Below, in pieces: positions 2,031-63,473 of a DNA stretch of 64,000 nt. Made by a program: the position numbers and the translations under genes. Under the pieces are notes generated by a model. The model did no database searches. It saw only the letters and a list, made by a program, of their open reading frames with translations, and was not told where the DNA came from. Position 1 is the stretch's first letter; each line of letters opens with the position of its first letter. This DNA comes from Planctomycetia bacterium (lineage in GTDB: Bacteria; Planctomycetota; Planctomycetia; Pirellulales; JACPPG01). Location: positions 12,390-76,389 of the forward strand of contig JACPPG010000050.1 in assembly GCA_016191115.1 (NCBI GenBank). Direction: 5' to 3'.

Positions 2031-3938
2031 TCAACCGCGCCCGGCCTGTTTGCGGCTCAACCACAGCTCGACCAGTCCCTTGGCGTCGGCGCCGTAGTTC
2101 TTTTCGAGCGCCACGGCAAACTCGGTGCCGGCCCGCAGCGCCGATAGGAGCGCCTGAAATCGCGGTTGGCTGGCCATCAGGAACCGCACGAAGTTGTAAG
2201 CGCGCGAGCGCGTCTCGGCGTCGAGATTCGTGGCAGTCAGGAAACTGTAGTCGCCTGGCGGCGAAGTGCGCTGCGCCTCATCCGCCCACTGCTTGACGAG
2301 CGGGCTCTTCGGCTCGACGCGAACGGCGATCGAGCGGGCCGCGCCGGCCGCGAACCACGCCGGCACATTGCCCAGGCTTTGCACGTACGCGCCGGCTACC
2401 TGTTCGGCCACGAGCGCCGGCAGCCCGGCTTCACCCTCGGATGAGACCGCCAGGCAAGCGTACGATTCCAGCCCTTTGGCGCGCCAGTGACCGGCGGCGC
2501 CCTTGGGCACCTCGCGCTCTTCGACCATGCGGGCGAACTCGGCATAGTCGAACGACCGCTTGAAGAGGTACAGCACCAGGCTCCCCTTCACCAGCGGCGC
2601 CTTGGGATCGAGCTTGAGCCATTTGGCGATCTTCGCCTGTTCCGACTCGGCCAGCTCGCCCAGCTCGGCCAGCCGGGGCGCGGACACATTGCCGATGAGG
2701 ATGAAGTTGGCCGTCTGCGATTGGCCGGGCTGCTCGTCGGGCAGCGCGAGCGCCCAGGTCTTCGCGGCCTGCGTCAGCCGCCTGGCCGCCAACTCGTCGT
2801 GCGACAGTTTCGCGGCCAAAAGCTCCTCGACCACGACCGTCAGCGGCTGAGAGGAGTCCGCTCCGTCGAATTTGGCCCCGTCCTTGATCCAAGTCTCGAA
2901 CCGCCCGATCAATTCGTCCGCCAGGGGAGGCTTCTCCAGCGGCATGCGGTCCCCCTCCGTGCCGCGAAGTTTCTTAATGATCAAACTTTCCGCGGGCTTG
3001 CCGGGCTCGACGATCTTGCCGCTCGCGCCGCCGCGGAGCAGGCCAGCGAACGTCTCGAAGCGCAACTGCCCATCGGGCTGATCGCCGCCGTGGCACTTCA
3101 CGCAGTTTTCCACCAGCGCCGTGGCCAGATCGCGGTTGAACTGCACGCGTTCGTCGCCGGTGGCTTTCACGAGCCCTTCGGGCGCCGGCGCGGCGGGTTT
3201 CGCCGCCTGGCCGATGCGTGCCGAACGGTCGGCGCCGTCGAACCGCGCACCGGCGTCGATCCACGTGGCGATTGCCACGACTTCTTCTTGCGTCATCCGC
3301 GCGCCGCCGCGCGGCATCTTCCCGGTGACGAGCATCTCGACCAGCCGGCTCGCCTGGCTTGCGCCGGGCTGGATGACCGGGCCGCTGTCCGCGCCGCGTG
3401 CCAAATCGTTGAACGTGGCCATGCTCAACCCGCCGCGCGCGCCGCGGATGTGGCAGCCGCCACAACGGGCGATCAGGATCGGCGCGACGTCGGAAGTGAA
3501 GCTCGGGCCGACAGGTTTCGCGGCCGGCTTCTTGGCGGTCGCCGTCTTGACGGGCTTCGTCGAAGACTTCGCGGGCGAAGCTGGGGGCTTCTTGGCAGGA
3601 GCGGGTTTCGACGCCGGCTGCTGCGCCTTGGCCACCAGTCGCTCGGCGGCGGCGAAGCGCTCCGTAAGCCGCTCGACCCCGGCGCGCGAGGCGGCGTCGA
3701 GCGTGGCCGCCGAAAGCTTCTCGAGCGCGGCCTTGGCAGCGGTCAGGGCATCAGCGGCCTCTGTGAGCTTCTTTGCCCGCAGCAAGTCGCCAACCTGGGC
3801 GAGCGATTCGTCGACCGCGCGAAGTTGCTCTTGCGGGGCCGTCGCGGCCTCATCGGCGCGAGCGCCAACGGCAAGCGCGATCGCCAACGCGGCTAGCGTT
3901 GTCAGCATGGAGCGCATGCGAAAACGTGTGCCTCGCAT
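2031..3938 (-). CDS. secreted protein with two planctomycete cytochrome-c (PSCyt1-like, CxxCH) domains
   Basis: Two CxxCH units: ARCGGCHIRGARGGLSMATF and ENCVKCHGGDQPDGQLRFETF, each followed by a ...WI.(A/D)GA.FDG tail. Signal peptide MRGTRFRMRSMLTTLAALAIALAVGARA. The start is ambiguous (3950, 3938, 3917 or 3908). Confidence 0.7.
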   Translation of the reverse strand: MRGTRFRMRSMLTTLAALAIALAVGARADEAATAPQEQLRAVDESLAQVGDLLRAKKLTEAADALTAAKAALEKLSAATLDAASRAGVERLTERFAAAERLVAKAQQPASKPAPAKKPPASPAKSSTKPVKTATAKKPAAKPVGPSFTSDVAPILIARCGGCHIRGARGGLSMATFNDLARGADSGPVIQPGASQASRLVEMLVTGKMPRGGARMTQEEVVAIATWIDAGARFDGADRSARIGQAAKPAAPAPEGLVKATGDERVQFNRDLATALVENCVKCHGGDQPDGQLRFETFAGLLRGGASGKIVEPGKPAESLIIKKLRGTEGDRMPLEKPPLADELIGRFETWIKDGAKFDGADSSQPLTVVVEELLAAKLSHDELAARRLTQAAKTWALALPDEQPGQSQTANFILIGNVSAPRLAELGELAESEQAKIAKWLKLDPKAPLVKGSLVLYLFKRSFDYAEFARMVEEREVPKGAAGHWRAKGLESYACLAVSSEGEAGLPALVAEQVAGAYVQSLGNVPAWFAAGAARSIAVRVEPKSPLVKQWADEAQRTSPPGDYSFLTATNLDAETRSRAYNFVRFLMASQPRFQALLSALRAGTEFAVALEKNYGADAKGLVELWLSRKQAGRG

Positions 3939-4061
3939 TCTCGGTTCCATTAGACCGCGGCGTCGATTCCGCGTCTGTGACTGGCCACACGGCTGCTGTC
4001 CCTTCAACCCGCCATTATAGAAGCCGCTGGCGCCCGGCGTCCAACGGCTCGACTGCGCCGA

Positions 4062-4218
4062 CAGGGCCGTTCACAGATTCAAGCTTGCCGGCGGCGCACC
4101 GGCGGGAAAGTGGGACAGGCACCGAGACGCAACGTTGGTATGAAAGGGCTTGCGCTGTTTATGCTCGGAGCCAGTCCCATTTTCCCGCCTCGCCATTTTG
4201 AAAAACAGAATGGCCCTG
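4062..4218 (+). mobile_element. 157-bp MITE copy A
   Basis: Starts CAGGGCC and ends GGCCCTG. Flanked by ACTGCGCCGA (4052-4061) and ACTCCGCCGA (4219-4228). Near-identical to 5578-5734 and, inverted, to 61654-61810. Confidence 0.85.
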
Positions 4219-4260
4219 ACTCCGCCGATGGCGAGAAAGGTTGGCGGAGCCGCACTACAT

Positions 4261-4427: not shown

Positions 4428-5132
4428 TCAATGCTGCCCGTGGTGGCGGCGGATGACCGTCTTTTTGCCGCGCATGCGCTCGGAGCGGGTGGGGCGATAG
4501 CCGTGCCGGACGGCGAACCATTCGGCGAACCGCTCGCGGTCGACCGGCCGCGAATTGCGATCGTCCAGCAGGTGTCCCAGCTCGTGAATGAGGATGTTGT
4601 TGAGGTAGAAGTCCTTGATCGACTCCTCAGTCCACATCAGCTTCCACACCCCGCCCGGCTCGTGTACCCAGCGGCCGCCGTACATGCGGGCCTCGTTACG
4701 TTGGGCCGGCTTCGGAGGCTGGTTGTAGAACTCGACCAGGTCCTCCTCAATCGGATAGAGATACAGCGCCGCGCCCCATTGCATGCCGTAGCAGGGGAAG
4801 CTCTGCTTCTTGCGCGTGATGCGGCTGAATTGGACCACTTCCAGCGGCCTGACGAACTCGGCGGGAAGCTGGTCGAGCCGCGCCCGGACCTCGGCCTGCG
4901 TCACCACGTGACGGTAGCCGCGGCCCGGTTCCTGCACGACGAAGCGATAAGGCCGACCCGATTCCGCCGGCTCGTACCAGTTCTCGGGCGGAGCGAACGG
5001 CAACCGCTGGTTGCGCTGCCCACGGGCTCTCTTGTTGTACTGAACCTTGTGCCCGGACGGGCGGGACAAGGGGGCCGTGGAGCGTTCGTGGGGGATGGGG
5101 CCGCGCGTATAGGACTTGGCGACGCCGAACAT
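4428..5132 (-). CDS. uncharacterised putative zinc metallopeptidase (HExxH)
   Basis: The ORF track extends to 5552, but that extension runs through repeat elements. The internal ATG at 5132 (MFGVAKSY...) gives 234 aa. The only motif is NNILIHELGHLLDD (HExxH). Both termini are basic and there is no signal peptide. Confidence 0.55.
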   Translation of the reverse strand: MFGVAKSYTRGPIPHERSTAPLSRPSGHKVQYNKRARGQRNQRLPFAPPENWYEPAESGRPYRFVVQEPGRGYRHVVTQAEVRARLDQLPAEFVRPLEVVQFSRITRKKQSFPCYGMQWGAALYLYPIEEDLVEFYNQPPKPAQRNEARMYGGRWVHEPGGVWKLMWTEESIKDFYLNNILIHELGHLLDDRNSRPVDRERFAEWFAVRHGYRPTRSERMRGKKTVIRRHHGQH

Positions 5133-5459
5133 GGTGAGAACCACCGCCGAGGAGGAGCCAGCAAAATGGGTAAACCGCGCATTTCGCCGTCTCCGTGGCT
5201 CGCGCGCGACGCGGTTGCGTCGCGACGACGCCGATCCTTCATGGAAACCGCCTTTGGCACGAATGGCAAAAGGCCTGTTCCCGCCTCTCAAATTCCATCC
5301 TATCGGGCGGCTGGAAGTGAAAACAAGTGAACAGAAAAAGTGCTTAGTCGGCAGGGGTTTGTGACGTTTTTTTGGCGCCCCTTGACAGTCCGGAAGAGGG
5401 TTTGCAGTCCGCTGGCGGCGGGCCGGCCGCGACAGCCGTTTTGGACGCGACCGGCCCGG

Positions 5460-5552
5460 CGCCATGGCCACGGAGGTATTCCGACGTGGCCATGCTTTCG
5501 GCGCGAACGACCATTTCAGGCCGCATGCCCACGGCGAGCGTGGGCATGGCAC
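5460..5552. repeat. double-hairpin REP-like element (family GTGCCATGGCC...GGGCATGGCAC), copy 1
   Basis: Contains CATGGCCACG-N12-CGTGGCCATG and CATGCCCAC-N7-GTGGGCATG. Homologous in inverted orientation to 18415-18489. Confidence 0.7.
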
Positions 5553-5577
5553 GCGGCAAGGCGCGATGCGTCAAGAG

Positions 5578-5734
5578 CAGGGCCGTTCACAGATTCAAGC
5601 TTGCCGGCGGCGCACCGGCGGGAAAGTGGGATAGGCACCGAGACGCAACGTTGGTCTGAAAGGACTTGCGCTGTTTATGCTCGGAGCCAGTCCCATTTTC
5701 CCGCCTCGCCATTTTGAAAAACAGAATGGCCCTG
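5578..5734 (+). mobile_element. 157-bp MITE copy B
   Basis: Same termini CAGGGCC/GGCCCTG. Perfect 10-bp direct duplication GCGTCAAGAG at 5568-5577 and 5735-5744. Confidence 0.9.
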
Positions 5735-5756
5735 GCGTCAAGAGTGGGGTGACTTG

Positions 5757-6515
5757 CTAATCCTCGGCCGCGGTTGGGCGGGCCGCCAGCCGCGGCGGCA
5801 CGGGCAGCTCGATCGTGAAGTGCGTGCCGCGCCCTGGCTCGCTCTCGACGCGAATCTGGCCGCCGTGGGCCTCGACGATCTTGCGCGCGATCGGGAGACC
5901 GAGTCCCGAACCGCCGGTCTTCGTCGAATAGAACGCCTCGAAGATGCGCGCGCGGGTCCGCTCGTCCATGCCACACCCGGTGTCGATTAAATGCAGCGCG
6001 ACGCCCCGCGGCGTCGTCTCCGTGCTGACGACGAGTTGGCCCCCGTCGGGCATGGCCTGCTGGGCGTTGATGACCAGGTTCAGTAGCGCGCTTTGAAACG
6101 TCTCCCGGTCCAGCAGCACGCCCGGCAGATCGGACTGCAAGTACGAAACGACCTCGATCCGCCCTTCTTGCGCCTTGGGGCGAAGGAAGTCGAGGACGCG
6201 GCGGACTTCCTCGTTGAGGTCGGAGGATTCCAGCCGGGGCTTGCGGACCTTGGCGAAGTTCAAGAAGTCGTCGAGCAGGTTTTGCAGCCGCTGGCACTCG
6301 CGCTCGACGACCGCGATTTTCGCCAGCGCCCGCCGCGCGCGGGGCGAGTCGTCCTGGCCGAAGTCCTCGGCCAATAGCTCCATGTTTAGACCGATCGTCG
6401 ACAGGGGATTCTTGATCTCATGCGCCAGTCCCCCGGCGAGCCGAGCAATCTCCGTGTAGTCGTCGACCAGCTTGCGGTTGACTTCCTCGGCAGACGGTTT
6501 GCGGGGAGGATTCAT
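5757..6515 (-). CDS. soluble sensor histidine kinase (HisKA + HATPase_c only)
   Basis: ATG at 6515 (MNPPRKPS...). H-box LAGGLAHEIKNPLS, N-box LLNLVINAQQAM, G-boxes DTGCGM and GGSGLGLPIARKIV. No adjacent response regulator. Confidence 0.85.
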   Translation of the reverse strand: MNPPRKPSAEEVNRKLVDDYTEIARLAGGLAHEIKNPLSTIGLNMELLAEDFGQDDSPRARRALAKIAVVERECQRLQNLLDDFLNFAKVRKPRLESSDLNEEVRRVLDFLRPKAQEGRIEVVSYLQSDLPGVLLDRETFQSALLNLVINAQQAMPDGGQLVVSTETTPRGVALHLIDTGCGMDERTRARIFEAFYSTKTGGSGLGLPIARKIVEAHGGQIRVESEPGRGTHFTIELPVPPRLAARPTAAED

Positions 6516-6655: not shown

Positions 6656-8770
6656 CTATTGTTTGTCGCCGTTGCCGCGGCCGGCCAGCTCGCGCATGGC
6701 GACTTTCCGGCTGAGTTTGACCCGGTCCTGGTCGTCGATGGCGATCACTTTGACGGTCATCTGATCGCCCACCTTGCACACGTCGGCAACGCTCGTGACG
6801 TATTCGTCCGACAACTCGCTGATGTGCACCAGACCGTCCTTGCCGGGGAGGATCTCGACGAAGGCGCCGAAGTCCTTGACGCTCGTCACGCGACCGTCGT
6901 AGATCTTGCCCACCGTCACGCTCTCGGTCAGCGCTTCGACGCGTCTCAAGGCGGCGAGCGCCGCCTCGGCGTCGTTGCTGGCCACGGTAACGGTGCCGTC
7001 GTCCTCGACTTCGATGACCGCGCCGGTCGCCTCCTGGATGCCGCGGATCGTCTTTCCGCCCGGGCCGATCAACAGGCCGATCTTCTCGGGTGGAATGTGG
7101 GTCCGCAGGAGGCGCGGCGCCCACAGCGAGATTTCCTCGCGCGGCATCGAGATCGCCGTCAGCATCGAGCGGAGGATGTTGATCCGCGCCTCGCGCGACT
7201 GGGCCATCGTGGCGCGGATAATCTCCGCGCCGATGCCGTTGATCTTCAGGTCCAACTGGATGCCGGTGATGCCGTTCTGGGTGCCGGCGATCTTGAAGTC
7301 CATGTCGCCGAAGTGGTCCTCGTCACCGATGATGTCGGTGAGCAGGGTCCACTTCGTGTCGGATTCCTTGACGAGGCCCACGGAGATGCCGGCCACGGGA
7401 TTGGTGATCTTGACGCCGGCCGACATCAGCCCCAATGTGGCCCCGCACACGCTGGCCATCGAGCTGGAGCCGTTCGACTCGAGGATGTCGGAGATGACGC
7501 GGATCGTGTAGGGGAACTCCTCGGAGTCGGGCAGAACCGGCTTGACGCTCCGCTCGGCCAGCGCGCCGTGACCGATCTCGCGGCGGCCCGGCCCGCGAAT
7601 GGGGCGCACCTCGCCCACGGAAAAGGGCGGGAAGTTATAGTCGAGCATGAACTTTTTGGTGTATTCCTCGATCAGCCCGTCCACGCGCTGCTCGTCGCGC
7701 GTGGTGCCCAGCGTGACGGTGATCAATGCCTGGGTCTCGCCGCGCTGGAAGATGGCCGAACCGTGCACCCGCGGCAGCACGTCGACTTCGCACACGATCG
7801 GGCGGAGGTCCTTGGCGCCGCGGCCGTCGGGCCGGGCGCCGCTGAGGATCAAGTCCCGCACGACCCGCTCTTCCAATTGGTGCCAGGCGCGTTCGACACT
7901 CGCCACGGGAATCGCACCGGCCGCGGCCGGGTCGGGAACCAGCTCGGCCACCACCCGCGCCTTGAGCGCGGCGACGGCGTCGGCCCGGGCGTGCTTGCCC
8001 ACGGTCTGTTTGGCGGTCTTGAAGGCCGCGTAGTAGGTCTCCCGCAGGCGATCCAACAGTCCGTCGGACGGCGGAATCTCGTACTGCTTCTTCTCGACGT
8101 TCGCCTTGGCAAACAGTTCGTTCTGTAGCGCGCAGAGGTCCTTGATCAGCCGATGTGCCTCGGCGATCGCCTCGGCCATGACGTCCTCGGGCAATTCGCG
8201 TGCGAAGCCCTCGATCATCAGCACGGCGTCTTTGCTGCCGGACACGATGAGGTCCAGATCGCTCTCTTCAAGCTGATCCTGCGTCGGGAATGGCACCCAT
8301 CCGCCATCGATCCGCCCAAGGCGGACGGCGGCCACCGGTCCCTCGAACGGCAGGGGCGACAGCCCCAGGCAGGCGCTCGCGCCGTTCATGGCCAGCACGT
8401 CGGCGTCGTTCTGGCGGTCGCTAGCAAGCACGAATGACTGAATCTGCACTTCGTCGTGGAACCACTCGGGGAAGAGCGGACGGATCGGCCGGTCCACCAG
8501 ACGCGAGGTGAGCGTCTCCTTCATCGTGGGCCGCCCCTCGCGCTTGAGAAAACCACCGGGGAACTTGCCGGCGGCGGCGGTCCGCTCGCGGTAGTCGCAG
8601 GTGAGGGGGAAAAAGTCGATGCCCGGCCGCGGCGGTCCTGTCGCGGCGGCGGTAAGCACGACCGTGTCGCCGTACTGGACGAGGCAACTGCCGGCGGCCT
8701 GCTTGGCGAGGAAACCAGTTTCGATCGACAGGACACTGTCACCAATCTGCTTTTCGACACGTACTTTCAA
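6656..8770 (-). CDS. pnp: polyribonucleotide nucleotidyltransferase (PNPase)
   Basis: Full PNPase architecture: FPLTCDYRERTAAAGKFPGGFLKREGRP, a second RNase PH core, a KH domain (IGPGGKTIRGIQ) and an S1 domain (GKIYDGRVTSVKDFGAFVEILPGKDGLVHISEL). TTG at 8770 gives the conserved N-terminus MKVRVEKQIGD. The alternative ATG at 8884 would add a non-conserved 38 aa. Confidence 0.9.
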   Translation of the reverse strand: MKVRVEKQIGDSVLSIETGFLAKQAAGSCLVQYGDTVVLTAAATGPPRPGIDFFPLTCDYRERTAAAGKFPGGFLKREGRPTMKETLTSRLVDRPIRPLFPEWFHDEVQIQSFVLASDRQNDADVLAMNGASACLGLSPLPFEGPVAAVRLGRIDGGWVPFPTQDQLEESDLDLIVSGSKDAVLMIEGFARELPEDVMAEAIAEAHRLIKDLCALQNELFAKANVEKKQYEIPPSDGLLDRLRETYYAAFKTAKQTVGKHARADAVAALKARVVAELVPDPAAAGAIPVASVERAWHQLEERVVRDLILSGARPDGRGAKDLRPIVCEVDVLPRVHGSAIFQRGETQALITVTLGTTRDEQRVDGLIEEYTKKFMLDYNFPPFSVGEVRPIRGPGRREIGHGALAERSVKPVLPDSEEFPYTIRVISDILESNGSSSMASVCGATLGLMSAGVKITNPVAGISVGLVKESDTKWTLLTDIIGDEDHFGDMDFKIAGTQNGITGIQLDLKINGIGAEIIRATMAQSREARINILRSMLTAISMPREEISLWAPRLLRTHIPPEKIGLLIGPGGKTIRGIQEATGAVIEVEDDGTVTVASNDAEAALAALRRVEALTESVTVGKIYDGRVTSVKDFGAFVEILPGKDGLVHISELSDEYVTSVADVCKVGDQMTVKVIAIDDQDRVKLSRKVAMRELAGRGNGDKQ

Positions 8771-8958
8771 GGTTCTTCCGTCCTTTTCTTCCGGCGTCCC
8801 AGGATCGCGATTCCAGAGCTCAGGCGGCACAACGAGCGGCTGCCTGGCAAGGAACGCGAAAGCGCCTCGCGGGAAACGGGGCATCAAGCGGGCTGGCGTG
8901 CGCTACTGCGTCAAGGGCCTGGGAAGGCCCGTGCCAGGCAAGCGAGGTGAGAATGCTA

Positions 8959-12677: not shown

Positions 12678-12759
12678 AATGATGAATGCGGAATGAAATG
12701 TGAGCGACCGCCGCTTGCAGGATCGTCTCGGTCACATTCATCATTCCGCATTCATCATT
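12678..12759. repeat. AT-rich palindromic element family 1 (AATGATGAATGCGGAATGATGAATG...), copy 1
   Basis: Left arm AATGATGAATGCGGAATGAAATGTGA pairs with right arm TCACATTCATCATTCCGCATTCATCATT. Lies between the convergent stops of ggt (12672) and the TPM gene (12768). Confidence 0.85.
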
Positions 12760-18304: not shown

Positions 18305-18414
18305 TGTGAGAACCCAAAATACAGGATGGAGTCAGGATCGAGAGGACGGCTTCGCTTCGGGCCACGCGACCCTGGGGGCGCCTGGTGTCGTGTCTGGCTT
18401 AAAACGTGTCGCGA

Positions 18415-18489
18415 GTGCCATGCCCACGCTGGCCGTGGCCACGCGGCGGCGGGCACGGCCACGTCGGAGTACCTCCGTGGCCATGGCAC
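18415..18489. repeat. double-hairpin REP-like element (family GTGCCATG...CATGGCAC), copy 2
   Basis: The reverse complement aligns with 5460-5552 at both ends (TGCCATGGCCACGGAGGTAYTCCGACGTGGCC ... AGCGTGGGCATGGCAC). Lies between ribH and nusB. Confidence 0.7.
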
Positions 18490-18514
18490 CCACCTTCTTA
18501 CGCCAGACGCGACA

Positions 18515-20530: not shown

Positions 20531-20652
20531 AATGATGAACGATGAATGCGGAATGATGAATGGAGGATCGCGAGCGTCGTGCGGAGGTTTACGGGGCAGT
20601 GAATCGCGCGACATTCCCCTCCTCAGCCCATTCATCATTCCGCATTCATCGT
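20531..20652. repeat. AT-rich palindromic element family 1, copy 2
   Basis: AATGATGAACGATGAATGCGGAATGATGAATGG ... CCATTCATCATTCCGCATTCATCGT. Lies in the divergent xylA/ABM intergenic region. Confidence 0.8.
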
Positions 20653-20705
20653 GGGTCGCCTATGATGACGCAGCCATCCCGATTCAAGCCCTCCGGAGTT
20701 GCTCG

Positions 20706-21012: not shown

Positions 21013-21120
21013 GTGTGCCACGGCTTGTCCCGAGAGGGCAAGCCGTGCTGATTCGGGCATCGGCTTCACGACTCCGACGTCCTCTCGCATTGCACTGCTT
21101 CCCTCGAAGCAGTGGCACAC
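21013..21120. repeat. bipartite hairpin element family 3 (GTGTGCCACGGCTTG...GAAGCAGTGGCACAC), copy 1
   Basis: 9-bp terminal inverted repeat GTGTGCCAC/GTGGCACAC. Internal hairpins CACGGCTTG-N-CAAGCCGTG and GCACTGCTTC-N4-GAAGCAGTG. Lies between convergent gene ends. Confidence 0.8.
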
Positions 21121-21165
21121 CGCAGTCGGCATTGACCTGGTTTTACTGCAGGTCGTGTGCTTCCG

Positions 21166-28103: not shown

Positions 28104-29003
28104 ATGACGCGCGCGGCCAGTTTGCTTAGGAGACGTGGGATTGCTTGGGGACTGGTGCCTGGGGTTCTGCTGGCCGCGGGATGGCTGGCCTTCGTGCCGG
28201 CTGCCGCCCGCGACGTCGATGACGAACGGGCGCCGGCCGCCGACGAGCCCGATGATCGTCCACCGGACGACAGGCCTCCGCCAGGACGTCCACCGCGACG
28301 GTCAAGGGATCGGGATTTCGAGCGGCCGCACGGACCACCGCCGCGCGAGGCGGACGAGCGCGAGCTTGACCGGCCGCGCGGTCGGCCGCCGTGGCGCGGC
28401 GAGCGCGATCGCCCTGAGGCGGATCGACCAGCCCGTGGCCCGGCCGATGAGAGATTCGACGGCCCGCGCCGCGAGGCCGGTGATCGCCTTGGTCCCCCGC
28501 CCTCGCGAGACCGTCGGGAGCGCGACTTCGATCGTGCTGATGGCTCGCCGCCTCCACCACGGCCCCGTGATCGGCCAGGGCGCGACTTCGATGGTCCGGA
28601 TGGTCCGCCTCCGCCGCCGCGCCGGTTCGACGGCCCGCCGCCGCGCGGGCCCGAAGGGCGCGACTTCGATGGTCCGCCCGGTCCGCCTCCGCCGCCACCG
28701 TGGCATCGCCCAGAGCGCGATCGCGACCGCTTGGATGGTCCGCCGCCGCCACGGAACCGCGCGGCGCGCGACTTCGATCGCGACGACGGGCCGCCACCGC
28801 GGCGCCGCTGGCACCGAGAGGGTGACCGCCCTCTCGGTCCACCGCCCGGTGCGGACGAGGGACGCGGGTTCGGTCCGCCCGACGGCGCGCCACCGCCGCC
28901 TCGGGAGCGGCGCGACTTCGACAGGCCGCGGCGTGGACCCGAAGAGCGTATCGGGCCGCCACCGCGTGAGGACCAGGATCGCGAGCGTGGCCGCGAGGAC
29001 TAA
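28104..29003 (+). CDS. secreted low-complexity Pro/Arg/Asp-rich repeat protein
   Basis: Signal/TM segment MTRAASLLRRRGIAWGLVPGVLLAAGWLAFVPAAA. About a dozen degenerate units of the type R(D/E)FD(G/R)P.GPPPPP follow. Confidence 0.6.
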   Translation: MTRAASLLRRRGIAWGLVPGVLLAAGWLAFVPAAARDVDDERAPAADEPDDRPPDDRPPPGRPPRRSRDRDFERPHGPPPREADERELDRPRGRPPWRGERDRPEADRPARGPADERFDGPRREAGDRLGPPPSRDRRERDFDRADGSPPPPRPRDRPGRDFDGPDGPPPPPRRFDGPPPRGPEGRDFDGPPGPPPPPPWHRPERDRDRLDGPPPPRNRAARDFDRDDGPPPRRRWHREGDRPLGPPPGADEGRGFGPPDGAPPPPRERRDFDRPRRGPEERIGPPPREDQDRERGRED

Positions 29004-29090
29004 TGATGAATGCGGAATGATGAATGATGAATGTTTGAGCCCGCGCTGGGGCCTTTTCATTCATCATTCATCATTCGCGGGTTCATCATT
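29002..29090. repeat. AT-rich palindromic element family 1, copy 3
   Basis: AATGATGAATGCGGAATGATGAATGATGAATG ... CATTCATCATTCATCATTCGCGGGTTCATCATT. Abuts or overlaps the stop codons of both convergent genes (TAA 29001-29003; TGA complement 29086-29088). Confidence 0.8.
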
Positions 29091-29747: not shown

Positions 29748-29858
29748 GTGTGCCACGGCTTGTCGCGACAGCGCAAGCCATGCTCCCTCACCGGGCAGCC
29801 CGCCCTGACGTTGACGTCGCGGCGCGCTTCGCACTGCTTCTGCGAAGCAGTGGCACAA
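29748..29858. repeat. bipartite hairpin element family 3, copy 2
   Basis: GTGTGCCACGGCTTGTCGCGACAGCGCAAGCCATGCT ... GCACTGCTTCTGCGAAGCAGTGGCACAA. Confidence 0.8.
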
Positions 29859-29910
29859 CCCATTTGGTTCCGTGCGCCCTCTTTAACGGAAAACCGCGCG
29901 GCACGGAGCG

Positions 29911-30717: not shown

Positions 30718-30752
30718 CTTTCGCAGTCGTTGTTCCCCGCTCTCCGGCATAC

Positions 30753-30826
30753 TAGCCCGAAACGCCAGCGAGGGTACGCCACGCGCCACTCTAAATCCCT
30801 CGCTGGCGCTACTTGCGCTTCGGGCT
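30753..30826. repeat. hairpin element family GCCAGCGAGGG-N22-CCCTCGCTGGC, copy 2
   Basis: TAGCCCGAAACGCCAGCGAGGG, a 22-nt loop (similar to the copy 1 loop), then CCCTCGCTGGCG...CTTCGGGCT. Lies in the divergent SDR/esterase intergenic region. Confidence 0.7.
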
Positions 30827-52563: not shown

Positions 52564-52639
52564 AATGATGAATGCGGAATGATGAATGATGAACGACTGG
52601 ACACTTTCATTCATCATTCATCATTCCGCATTCATCATT
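52564..52639. repeat. AT-rich palindromic element family 1, copy 4 (inside the suf operon)
   Basis: 30-bp perfect stem AATGATGAATGCGGAATGATGAATGATGAA (52564-52593), complementary to a tract within 52606-52639, with a 12-nt loop. Lies between the sufB stop (52652) and the sufD start (52507). Confidence 0.85.
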
Positions 52640-52651
52640 GCTCGCGGGCGG

Positions 52652-61516: not shown

Positions 61517-61653
61517 GCGGATCTCCTCCCAGGCGCACCTCAACCCCACTAGCGCGCAAGCACTTTCCCCAGCCTGACCGGTTCCGGCGAAGGCGTCAAC
61601 AGGAGCTTCCGGGGCCGGCCCTTTTCGCGACGGAGGACCGCCGCCTTGAGGAC

Positions 61654-61810
61654 CAGGGCCATTCTGTTTTTCAAAATGGCGAGGCGGGAAAATGAGACTG
61701 GCTCCGAGCATAAACAGCGCAAGCCCTTTCAGACCAACGTTTCGTCTCGGTGCCCGTCCCACTTTCCCGCCGGTGCGCCGCCGGCAAGCTTGAATCTGTG
61801 AACGGCCCTG
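61654..61810 (-). mobile_element. 157-bp MITE copy C (inverted)
   Basis: CAGGGCC...GGCCCTG termini. Perfect 11-bp duplication GCCTTGAGGAC at 61643-61653 and 61811-61821. Confidence 0.9.
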
Positions 61811-61926
61811 GCCTTGAGGACGACGCATGTAGACAAATGGGCAAGTGGCCGCTTATTTTGTTGGTGGACTGAAGGGACGAACCCCTCGGCTCGCTAGCTT
61901 CAGAATGGAAACCGCGAGGACGCGCG

Positions 61927-63324: not shown

Positions 63325-63433
63325 GTGTGCCACTGCTTCGTTAGAAGCAGTGCAAGGCTGCGATTCGTAGTATGTCGACGCCTGACAGCGCTCCAAAGCA
63401 CGGCTTGCCCGTGCCGGTCAAGCCGTGGCACAC
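63325..63433. repeat. bipartite hairpin element family 3, copy 3 (inverted)
   Basis: GTGTGCCACTGCTTCGTTAGAAGCAGTGCAAGG ... AGCACGGCTTGCCCGTGCCGGTCAAGCCGTGGCACAC. Lies between convergent gene ends. Confidence 0.8.
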
Positions 63434-63473
63434 CGCTGGTGGCGCACTTGCTGTCCGCCGTGCCAACTCTCGC

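Follow-up and report, generated by a model that had tools for sequence, protein, structure and literature searches.

The 64-kb stretch of planctomycete DNA analysed here ("the window") harbors three copies of a 157-bp repeat. With a probability of about 0.85, this repeat is a non-autonomous ISAs1-family MITE, for which an ISAs1 transposase encoded elsewhere in the genome provides mobility in trans. The three copies are independent insertions, each with exact ends and its own target-site duplication (TSD), and related autonomous ISAs1 elements from the same phylum possess near-identical tips and 10-bp TSDs. An initial annotation of the window had already proposed a MITE, and the present analysis supports this reading on every point that the window allows to be tested. 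The element displays terminal inverted repeats (TIRs) at exact boundaries shared by all copies, a TSD at each site, and a small size, and it carries neither a gene nor a transposase. The copies, found in different contexts (n = 3 within the 64-kb window), are near-identical, with identities of 96.8-98.1%.

Copies, boundaries and target-site duplications

The three 157-bp copies, with the positions and orientations first given for them, were confirmed by inspection of the flanks, by alignment, and by BLASTN (Table 1). All three start with CAGGGCC and end with GGCCCTG, as initially annotated. These motifs are the sharp limits of similarity: the ends are identical in the three copies, and identity collapses outside. 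Probes of 28-30 nt for the two termini, with up to three mismatches allowed, yield three matches each in the window and none in 100 dinucleotide-preserving shuffles of it. A low-stringency BLASTN search of the 64 kb reveals no fourth or partial copy. The G+C content of the element is 58.6%, compared to 65.6% for the window. Its lack of coding capacity, also part of the first description, is confirmed: no gene is found in the 157 bp, and the single open frame has no conserved start codon. This frame has no homologue in a collection of 5.8 billion proteins, in which it was also sought as spurious gene calls over other copies.

Table 1. Copies of the element, their TSDs, and further repeat families of the window
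Feature	Position	Strand	Description
MITE copy 1 (c1)	4062-4218	+	157 bp; one substitution relative to the three-copy consensus
MITE copy 2 (c2)	5578-5734	+	157 bp; two private substitutions
MITE copy 3 (c3)	61654-61810	- (inverted)	157 bp; three private substitutions
Left TSD, copy 1	4052-4061		ACTGCGCCGA, 10 bp
Right TSD, copy 1	4219-4228		ACTCCGCCGA, 10 bp; 9/10 relative to the left TSD, one mismatch
Left TSD, copy 2	5568-5577		GCGTCAAGAG, 10 bp
Right TSD, copy 2	5735-5744		GCGTCAAGAG, 10/10 relative to the left TSD
TSD, copy 3, one side	61643-61653		GCCTTGAGGAC, 11 bp
TSD, copy 3, other side	61811-61821		GCCTTGAGGAC, 11/11
REP-like hairpin repeats	4257-4282/4305-4330, 30748-30774; 5458-5495, 5520-5555, 18412-18490
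A+T-rich repeat AATGATGAATGCGGAATGATGAATG	12735-12759, 20531-20575, 20629-20659, 28997-29046, 52564-52645
GTGTGCCACGGCTTG/GAAGCAGTGGCACAC family	21013-21049, 21087-21129, 29748-29784, 29843-29867, 63325-63358, 63397-63442

The few differences that had been noted between copies amount to 6 variable columns out of 157 in the three-copy alignment, and every variant is confined to one copy. Copy 1 is 98.1% identical to copy 2 and 97.5% identical to copy 3 (BLASTN), while copies 2 and 3 share 96.8% identity (counted from the three-copy alignment). Differences that are exclusively private form a star-like pattern; this pattern, together with a TSD that has already mutated, points to a burst from one master copy. 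The recent activity proposed in the initial annotation is therefore a reasonable view, to be softened by the one to three substitutions that separate each copy from the consensus and by the mutated TSD.

The same annotation held that a TSD of 10-11 bp brackets each copy. This is borne out, the duplications being of 10 bp with one mismatch, 10 bp, and 11 bp; in the case of copy 3, the TSD must be 11 bp because the boundaries of the element are fixed. Three different sequences are duplicated, one set per copy. For a fixed position, the probability of matching 10 nt with one mismatch or none is ~3e-5 per copy, and the three TSDs together are therefore far beyond coincidence. At one of the three sites, an empty allele would read ...GGCTCGACTGCGCCGA joined straight to TGGCGAGAAAGG.... 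Missing TSDs or inconsistent ends, which had been named as observations that would speak against a transposed element, occur in none of the three window copies.

Two further arrangements were considered and rejected. Inter-copy recombination would give chimeric TSDs, and these are seen in none of the three copies; as each copy keeps its own matched TSD, no recombination has taken place between them since insertion. A composite transposon formed by copies 1 and 2 around the ORF at 4428-5552 is at odds with the matched TSD that each of these copies possesses, and the outer flanks differ.

Probable assignment to the ISAs1 family

Elements of the ISAs1 family possess inverted repeats (IRs) of 14-22 bp starting with CAGGG and 10-bp direct repeats (DRs) (PMC11946415). 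ISArsp11 has the IR CAGGGCTGATGCAAAGTCG and a 10-bp DR (PMC6305408). Both ends of the MITE start with CAGGGCC, and its duplications of 10, 10 and 11 bp have the ~10-bp length of the family. Moreover, closely similar ends are found in elements that encode an NF033564 transposase. In a Planctomycetaceae MAG (locus L012), the terminus CAGGGCCATTCACTGTTTCAAAATGCC is directly continuous with the 3' end of an ORF. The NCBIfam model NF033564 ("ISAs1 family transposase") matches this ORF at 97 bits, for a cut-off of 70. The L012 fragment, used as the query of a homology search, retrieves 1912 relatives. The C-terminus of their transposases, LF(A/T)(K/R)LGI(L/F)K(Q/K)*, overlaps the right IR and is nearly invariant because this IR encodes it. 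Where the motif would be located, the MITE reads PFSRLAILKN.

Contigs with these transposase genes provide full-length elements of 1264-1282 bp: 1264-1267 bp for L058-L062, 1280 bp for L070, and 1282 bp for L066-L069. Over 22 nt, the right tip of the MITE is identical to the IS right ends at 19 positions and to the IS left ends at 10-12; for the left tip, the corresponding values are 18/22 and 15-16/22. Since the right-end identities exceed the left-end ones, both tips of the MITE look like an IS right end. Perfect 10-bp duplications flank full-length ISs on long ENA contigs, as in L066 (CGTCTCCGCC), L067 (TCCAGAGAAC) and L070 (GGGCTCTGCG). At L069, the duplication matches at the 9/9 positions visible before the contig end; L068 is degraded. 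No duplication is visible at the five full-length ISs on short metagenome contigs (L058-L062). Our assumption is that, in these, a repeated element has been assembled with chimeric flanks, which is the probable reason.

The family could be a different one. IS231-type elements, of the IS4 family, make 10-12-bp TSDs and have known miniature derivatives. A MITE of IS4 or of another DDE family with long TSDs might thus resemble ISAs1 at its ends by coincidence: TSDs of 10-11 bp also fit parts of the IS4 family, the resemblance to ISAs1 elements does not go beyond the outermost 22-30 nt, and no cognate transposase has been observed in this genome. We consider this improbable, however, as the CAGGG tip is a stated ISAs1 hallmark (PMC11946415) and the tips of the MITE share 19 to 21 of 22 positions with ends that adjoin an NF033564 gene or come from the clade of one. 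Furthermore, this ISAs1 clade itself makes 10-bp TSDs, and the right end of the MITE keeps the conserved C-terminal coding motif of the clade. An ISAs1 affiliation is therefore retained.

Some features of the planctomycete ISAs1 clade deserve mention in their own right. Its transposase is always called as two ORFs, the first of 207 or 238 aa (DDE_Tnp_1_assoc) and the second of 151 aa, an observation covering L066 (2441-2520), L058-L062, L067-L069, L057 and L012. ORF2 lies in frame +1, with both frames open over ~20 codons. The ORF1/ORF2 junction is strongly conserved and consists of a CCCCTTC-NNNN-GAAGGGG hairpin followed by C-TTTTT-CCCCC; among the 120 clusters listed at 90% identity, a length of exactly 151 aa prevails. 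Members of the ISAs1 family are usually described as single-ORF elements. The junction is a candidate site of programmed +1 frameshifting or slippage. In L069 (1661-1683) and L056 (2167-2186), an older GGCCCTG right end is found upstream of the full-length IS, at 11-13 nt from its left end, and a new copy has therefore inserted right beside an older one. The older right end of L069 terminates a decayed 3' region of an ISAs1-type transposase.

Searches for a transposase, a parent IS and further copies

The window itself contains no transposase detectable at E <= 1 by tblastn with both ORFs of a full-length ISAs1 relative, in agreement with the initial annotation. A longer element with the same termini and a transposase gene had been suggested as a search target. 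Related ISAs1 elements were indeed found, while a parent with identical ends was not: none of the retrieved ISs possesses the same ~60-nt ends, and only the terminal 22-30 nt are common to them and the MITE. Locus L012 came from a scan of genome contigs with a pattern for both tips, CAGGGCCRTTCNNNNNTTCAAR, having 15 specified bases. The matches listed are mostly due to chance; among them, L012, L022, L050 and L003 are useful loci, and none corresponds to the 157-bp element. In the metagenome collection, a 38-nt interior probe has no match, and a scan with CAGGGCCATTCNGTTTTTCAA gives three chance matches, all inside genes. No other copies were detected in viral contigs (scan) or in plasmids (BLASTN). 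A peptide from frame +0 (nt 31-108) was tried as a remnant transposase C-terminus; its score of 19-20 bits, against 15 bits for a reversed-sequence control, is not relied on.

Genomic context

All three copies are intergenic. Copy 1 lies between the stop of the minus-strand ORF at 4428-5552, for which the codon-position G+C pattern supports coding, and the start of a PSCyt gene (2031-4007, minus strand). On the other side of this ORF, copy 2 separates its start from the stop of a histidine-kinase gene (5757). Copies 1 and 2 are thus found between co-directional genes and are probably transcribed. Copy 3 resides in a divergent region, between a DUF1501 gene (start 61927, plus strand) and a minus-strand gene. 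The reading frame of the latter happens to run open through the element, and its plausible start (MHATALVITMLVAQ...) lies ~140 bp beyond copy 3.

The flanking genes display planctomycete hallmarks, namely PSCyt1 and DUF1501 domains. The PNPase of the window (6656-8887, minus strand) is MBI2826117.1 at 100% identity, and the next-best PNPase matches, 87-88% identical, are labelled Pirellulales. The closest relatives (L063-L065) share ~80% DNA identity with the window, and their homology to it stops inside the histidine-kinase gene adjoining copy 2. The 157-bp element is absent from the 22-kb loci of these relatives, in which the gene order beyond the kinase differs. The order S15, PNPase, histidine kinase is common to L063-L065 and the window and ends at copy 2 (window 5757-5800). 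In L063-L065, the kinase is followed by genes for an esterase and a TPR protein; in the window, the ORF at 4428-5552 and the PSCyt cytochrome come next.

Inverted repeat and hairpin

The tips of the element, CAGGGCCGTTC and CAGGGCCATTC (the right tip being also given as GAATGGCCCTG), match at 10 of 11 positions. Over their first 65 positions, the two arms agree at about 44 after a 10-nt gap (BLASTN). The 7-bp terminal inverted repeat of the initial annotation is hence an inverted repeat of greater length than proposed. With arms matching to this extent, the whole element is predicted to form one long hairpin. Its predicted folding energy is -41.5 kcal/mol as DNA (z = -5.6) and -81.4 kcal/mol as RNA (z = -6.9).

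Such a hairpin might also be expected of a palindromic repeat of REP/REPIN type, which would owe its spread to recombination or to a single-strand transposase of the RAYT type and would not be a DDE element of cut-and-paste or copy-paste mode. REP families have been reported in Planctomycetes (PMC3733652), and other short hairpin repeat families are abundant in the window, where they adjoin copies 1 and 2. Against this view, REP/REPIN repeats would be short palindromes without TSDs, while the three copies measure 157 bp and all have site-specific 10-11-bp TSDs and exact, identical ends. We know of no REP/REPIN mobilisation that gives such TSDs or such ends. In addition, 157 bp with CAGGG tips is a misfit for the 20-40-bp GTAG/CGTC REPs. 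A REP/REPIN origin is consequently very unlikely.

A duplicated gene for a structured RNA, or a duplicated hairpin with a regulatory role in cis (sRNA, terminator or RNase target), is equally unlikely; in this view, the hairpin would be the function. The RNA fold is very stable, as given above, the two copies between co-directional genes are probably transcribed, and promoter-like sites occur 19-20 bp from copies 1 and 3. However, the whole window has no Rfam match at the gathering threshold, and a relaxed threshold returns only sub-threshold matches to models of eukaryotic miRNA hairpins. A consensus scan finds no sigma-70-like promoter and no intrinsic-terminator pattern inside the element. 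Its orientation relative to the neighbouring genes is inconsistent, and gene duplication fails to explain the TSDs. In a secondary, exapted role, the very stable hairpin of the inserted MITE might serve to signal RNA processing or to stabilise RNA between genes transcribed together; no positive evidence for this was found.

The two promoter-like matches, at 4014-4043 (minus strand) and 61830-61859 (plus strand), are situated outside the element and point toward the PSCyt and DUF1501 genes, respectively; they are two cases of simple consensus matches. No sign of regulation of the neighbouring genes by the element was found.

Other repeats are present in the window (Table 1). G+C-rich, REP-like short hairpin repeats adjoin copies 1 and 2 and also occur elsewhere, and two of them match unrelated positions in L063-L065. 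Members of an A+T-rich family, AATGATGAATGCGGAATGATGAATG, occur in either orientation and in places form local inverted pairs; such a family is striking at 66% G+C. A further dispersed family (GTGTGCCACGGCTTG... and ...GAAGCAGTGGCACAC) forms paired hairpin-like units at three loci. Finally, a degenerate repeat at 28328-28929, either tandem or interspersed, has units of ~50-77 nt (...GGCGCGACTTCGAT...CCGCCGCC...) and probably encodes a proline/arginine-rich repetitive protein segment.

Independent assembly

Although the window stems from a MAG and repeats are poorly handled by short-read assemblers, it is a negligible prospect that the copies are an artefact of assembly: such errors do not yield precise and differing 10-11-bp TSDs at three sites, and the copy-3 junction is identical in an independent Logan assembly. 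The Logan contig (L051, from SRR12113392) is identical to the window over 2216 bp, reproduces this junction base for base, and stops 26 nt inside copy 3, where a de Bruijn assembler is expected to break on meeting a repeat.

Proposed mechanism and significance

As an ISAs1-family MITE, the element would have kept just the ends that a transposase binds, which are predicted to be the terminal inverted repeats starting with CAGGGCC. It would be mobilised in trans by a DDE transposase of ISAs1 type, the gene for which would lie elsewhere in the genome. This transposase would cut the target with a 10-11-nt stagger, and repair would then produce the flanking direct duplications. A cognate transposase is presumably present in this genome, or was formerly. 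A single master sequence would have given rise to the three copies, in a burst of fairly recent date. The long hairpin would most simply be a by-product of two like ends, both of the IS-right-end type, and not a function under selection.

If so, ISAs1-type DDE transposition is active, or was until recently, in an uncultured planctomycete lineage. The element could serve as a ready marker for strain typing and help to explain contig breaks in assemblies of this organism. The ISAs1 family also gains a miniature derivative, none having been found described so far: a full-text search of the literature, incomplete in coverage and with ISfinder outside its scope, returned no ISAs1-derived MITE. A broader claim is put forward tentatively and with considerable doubt. 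According to it, this would be the first described lineage of ISAs1-derived MITEs, a recently active right-end/right-end palindrome with 65-nt arms in a Pirellulales-like planctomycete, belonging to a clade with repeated miniatures and a two-ORF, +1-frame transposase. In any case, the element is an ordinary kind of mobile DNA and leaves the understanding of transposons unchanged.

Comparison with known systems

A separate miniature element was observed in an Isosphaeraceae MAG, on a 1.8-Mb contig (L022, 2622-2757). This 136-bp element has a perfect 22-bp TIR, CAGGGCCATTCACAGTTTCAAG, which matches the left tip of the window element at 20 of 22 positions, whereas its interior is unrelated and its length is different. 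It was seen as a single copy, and its flanking repeat is of only 7 bp with one mismatch (ACCGGCA / ACCGGCC). Its existence suggests that this IS clade has spawned miniature derivatives more than once in Planctomycetota.

Bacterial MITEs of like build include the IS231-derived MIC231 and the Neisseria Correia elements. The cyanobacterial MaeMITEs have been described as MITEs as well (PMC2779907). Like the element reported here, MaeMITEs are short, non-coding, bounded by TIRs, multi-copy, intergenic, flanked by TSDs, and hairpin-forming (PMC2779907). All three, however, derive from IS families other than ISAs1.

With the ISAs1 family itself (ISAs1, IS1358, the E. coli H-repeat elements, ISArsp11, and Frankia Francci3_2330/2941), the MITE shares the CAGGG IR, of a length within the 14-22 bp of the family, and the ~10-bp TSD. 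Members of this family are 1.2-1.5 kb long and encode a transposase, while the MITE is of 157 bp and lacks one. The arms of the MITE are complementary over ~65 nt, far past the ISAs1 IRs, and both of its tips are of the IS-right-end type. One of its TSDs is of 11 bp, compared to the 10 bp quoted for the family.

Relative to the planctomycete ISAs1 clade (L058-L062, L066-L070 and L012), the MITE displays no similarity past the terminal 22-30 nt, and these elements, which come from other organisms and samples, are not its direct parent. Both nevertheless have in common the right end CAGGGCCATTCAC.G.TTCAAAATG and 10-bp TSDs, and the C-terminal coding motif that the clade carries at its right IR is still recognisable in the MITE.
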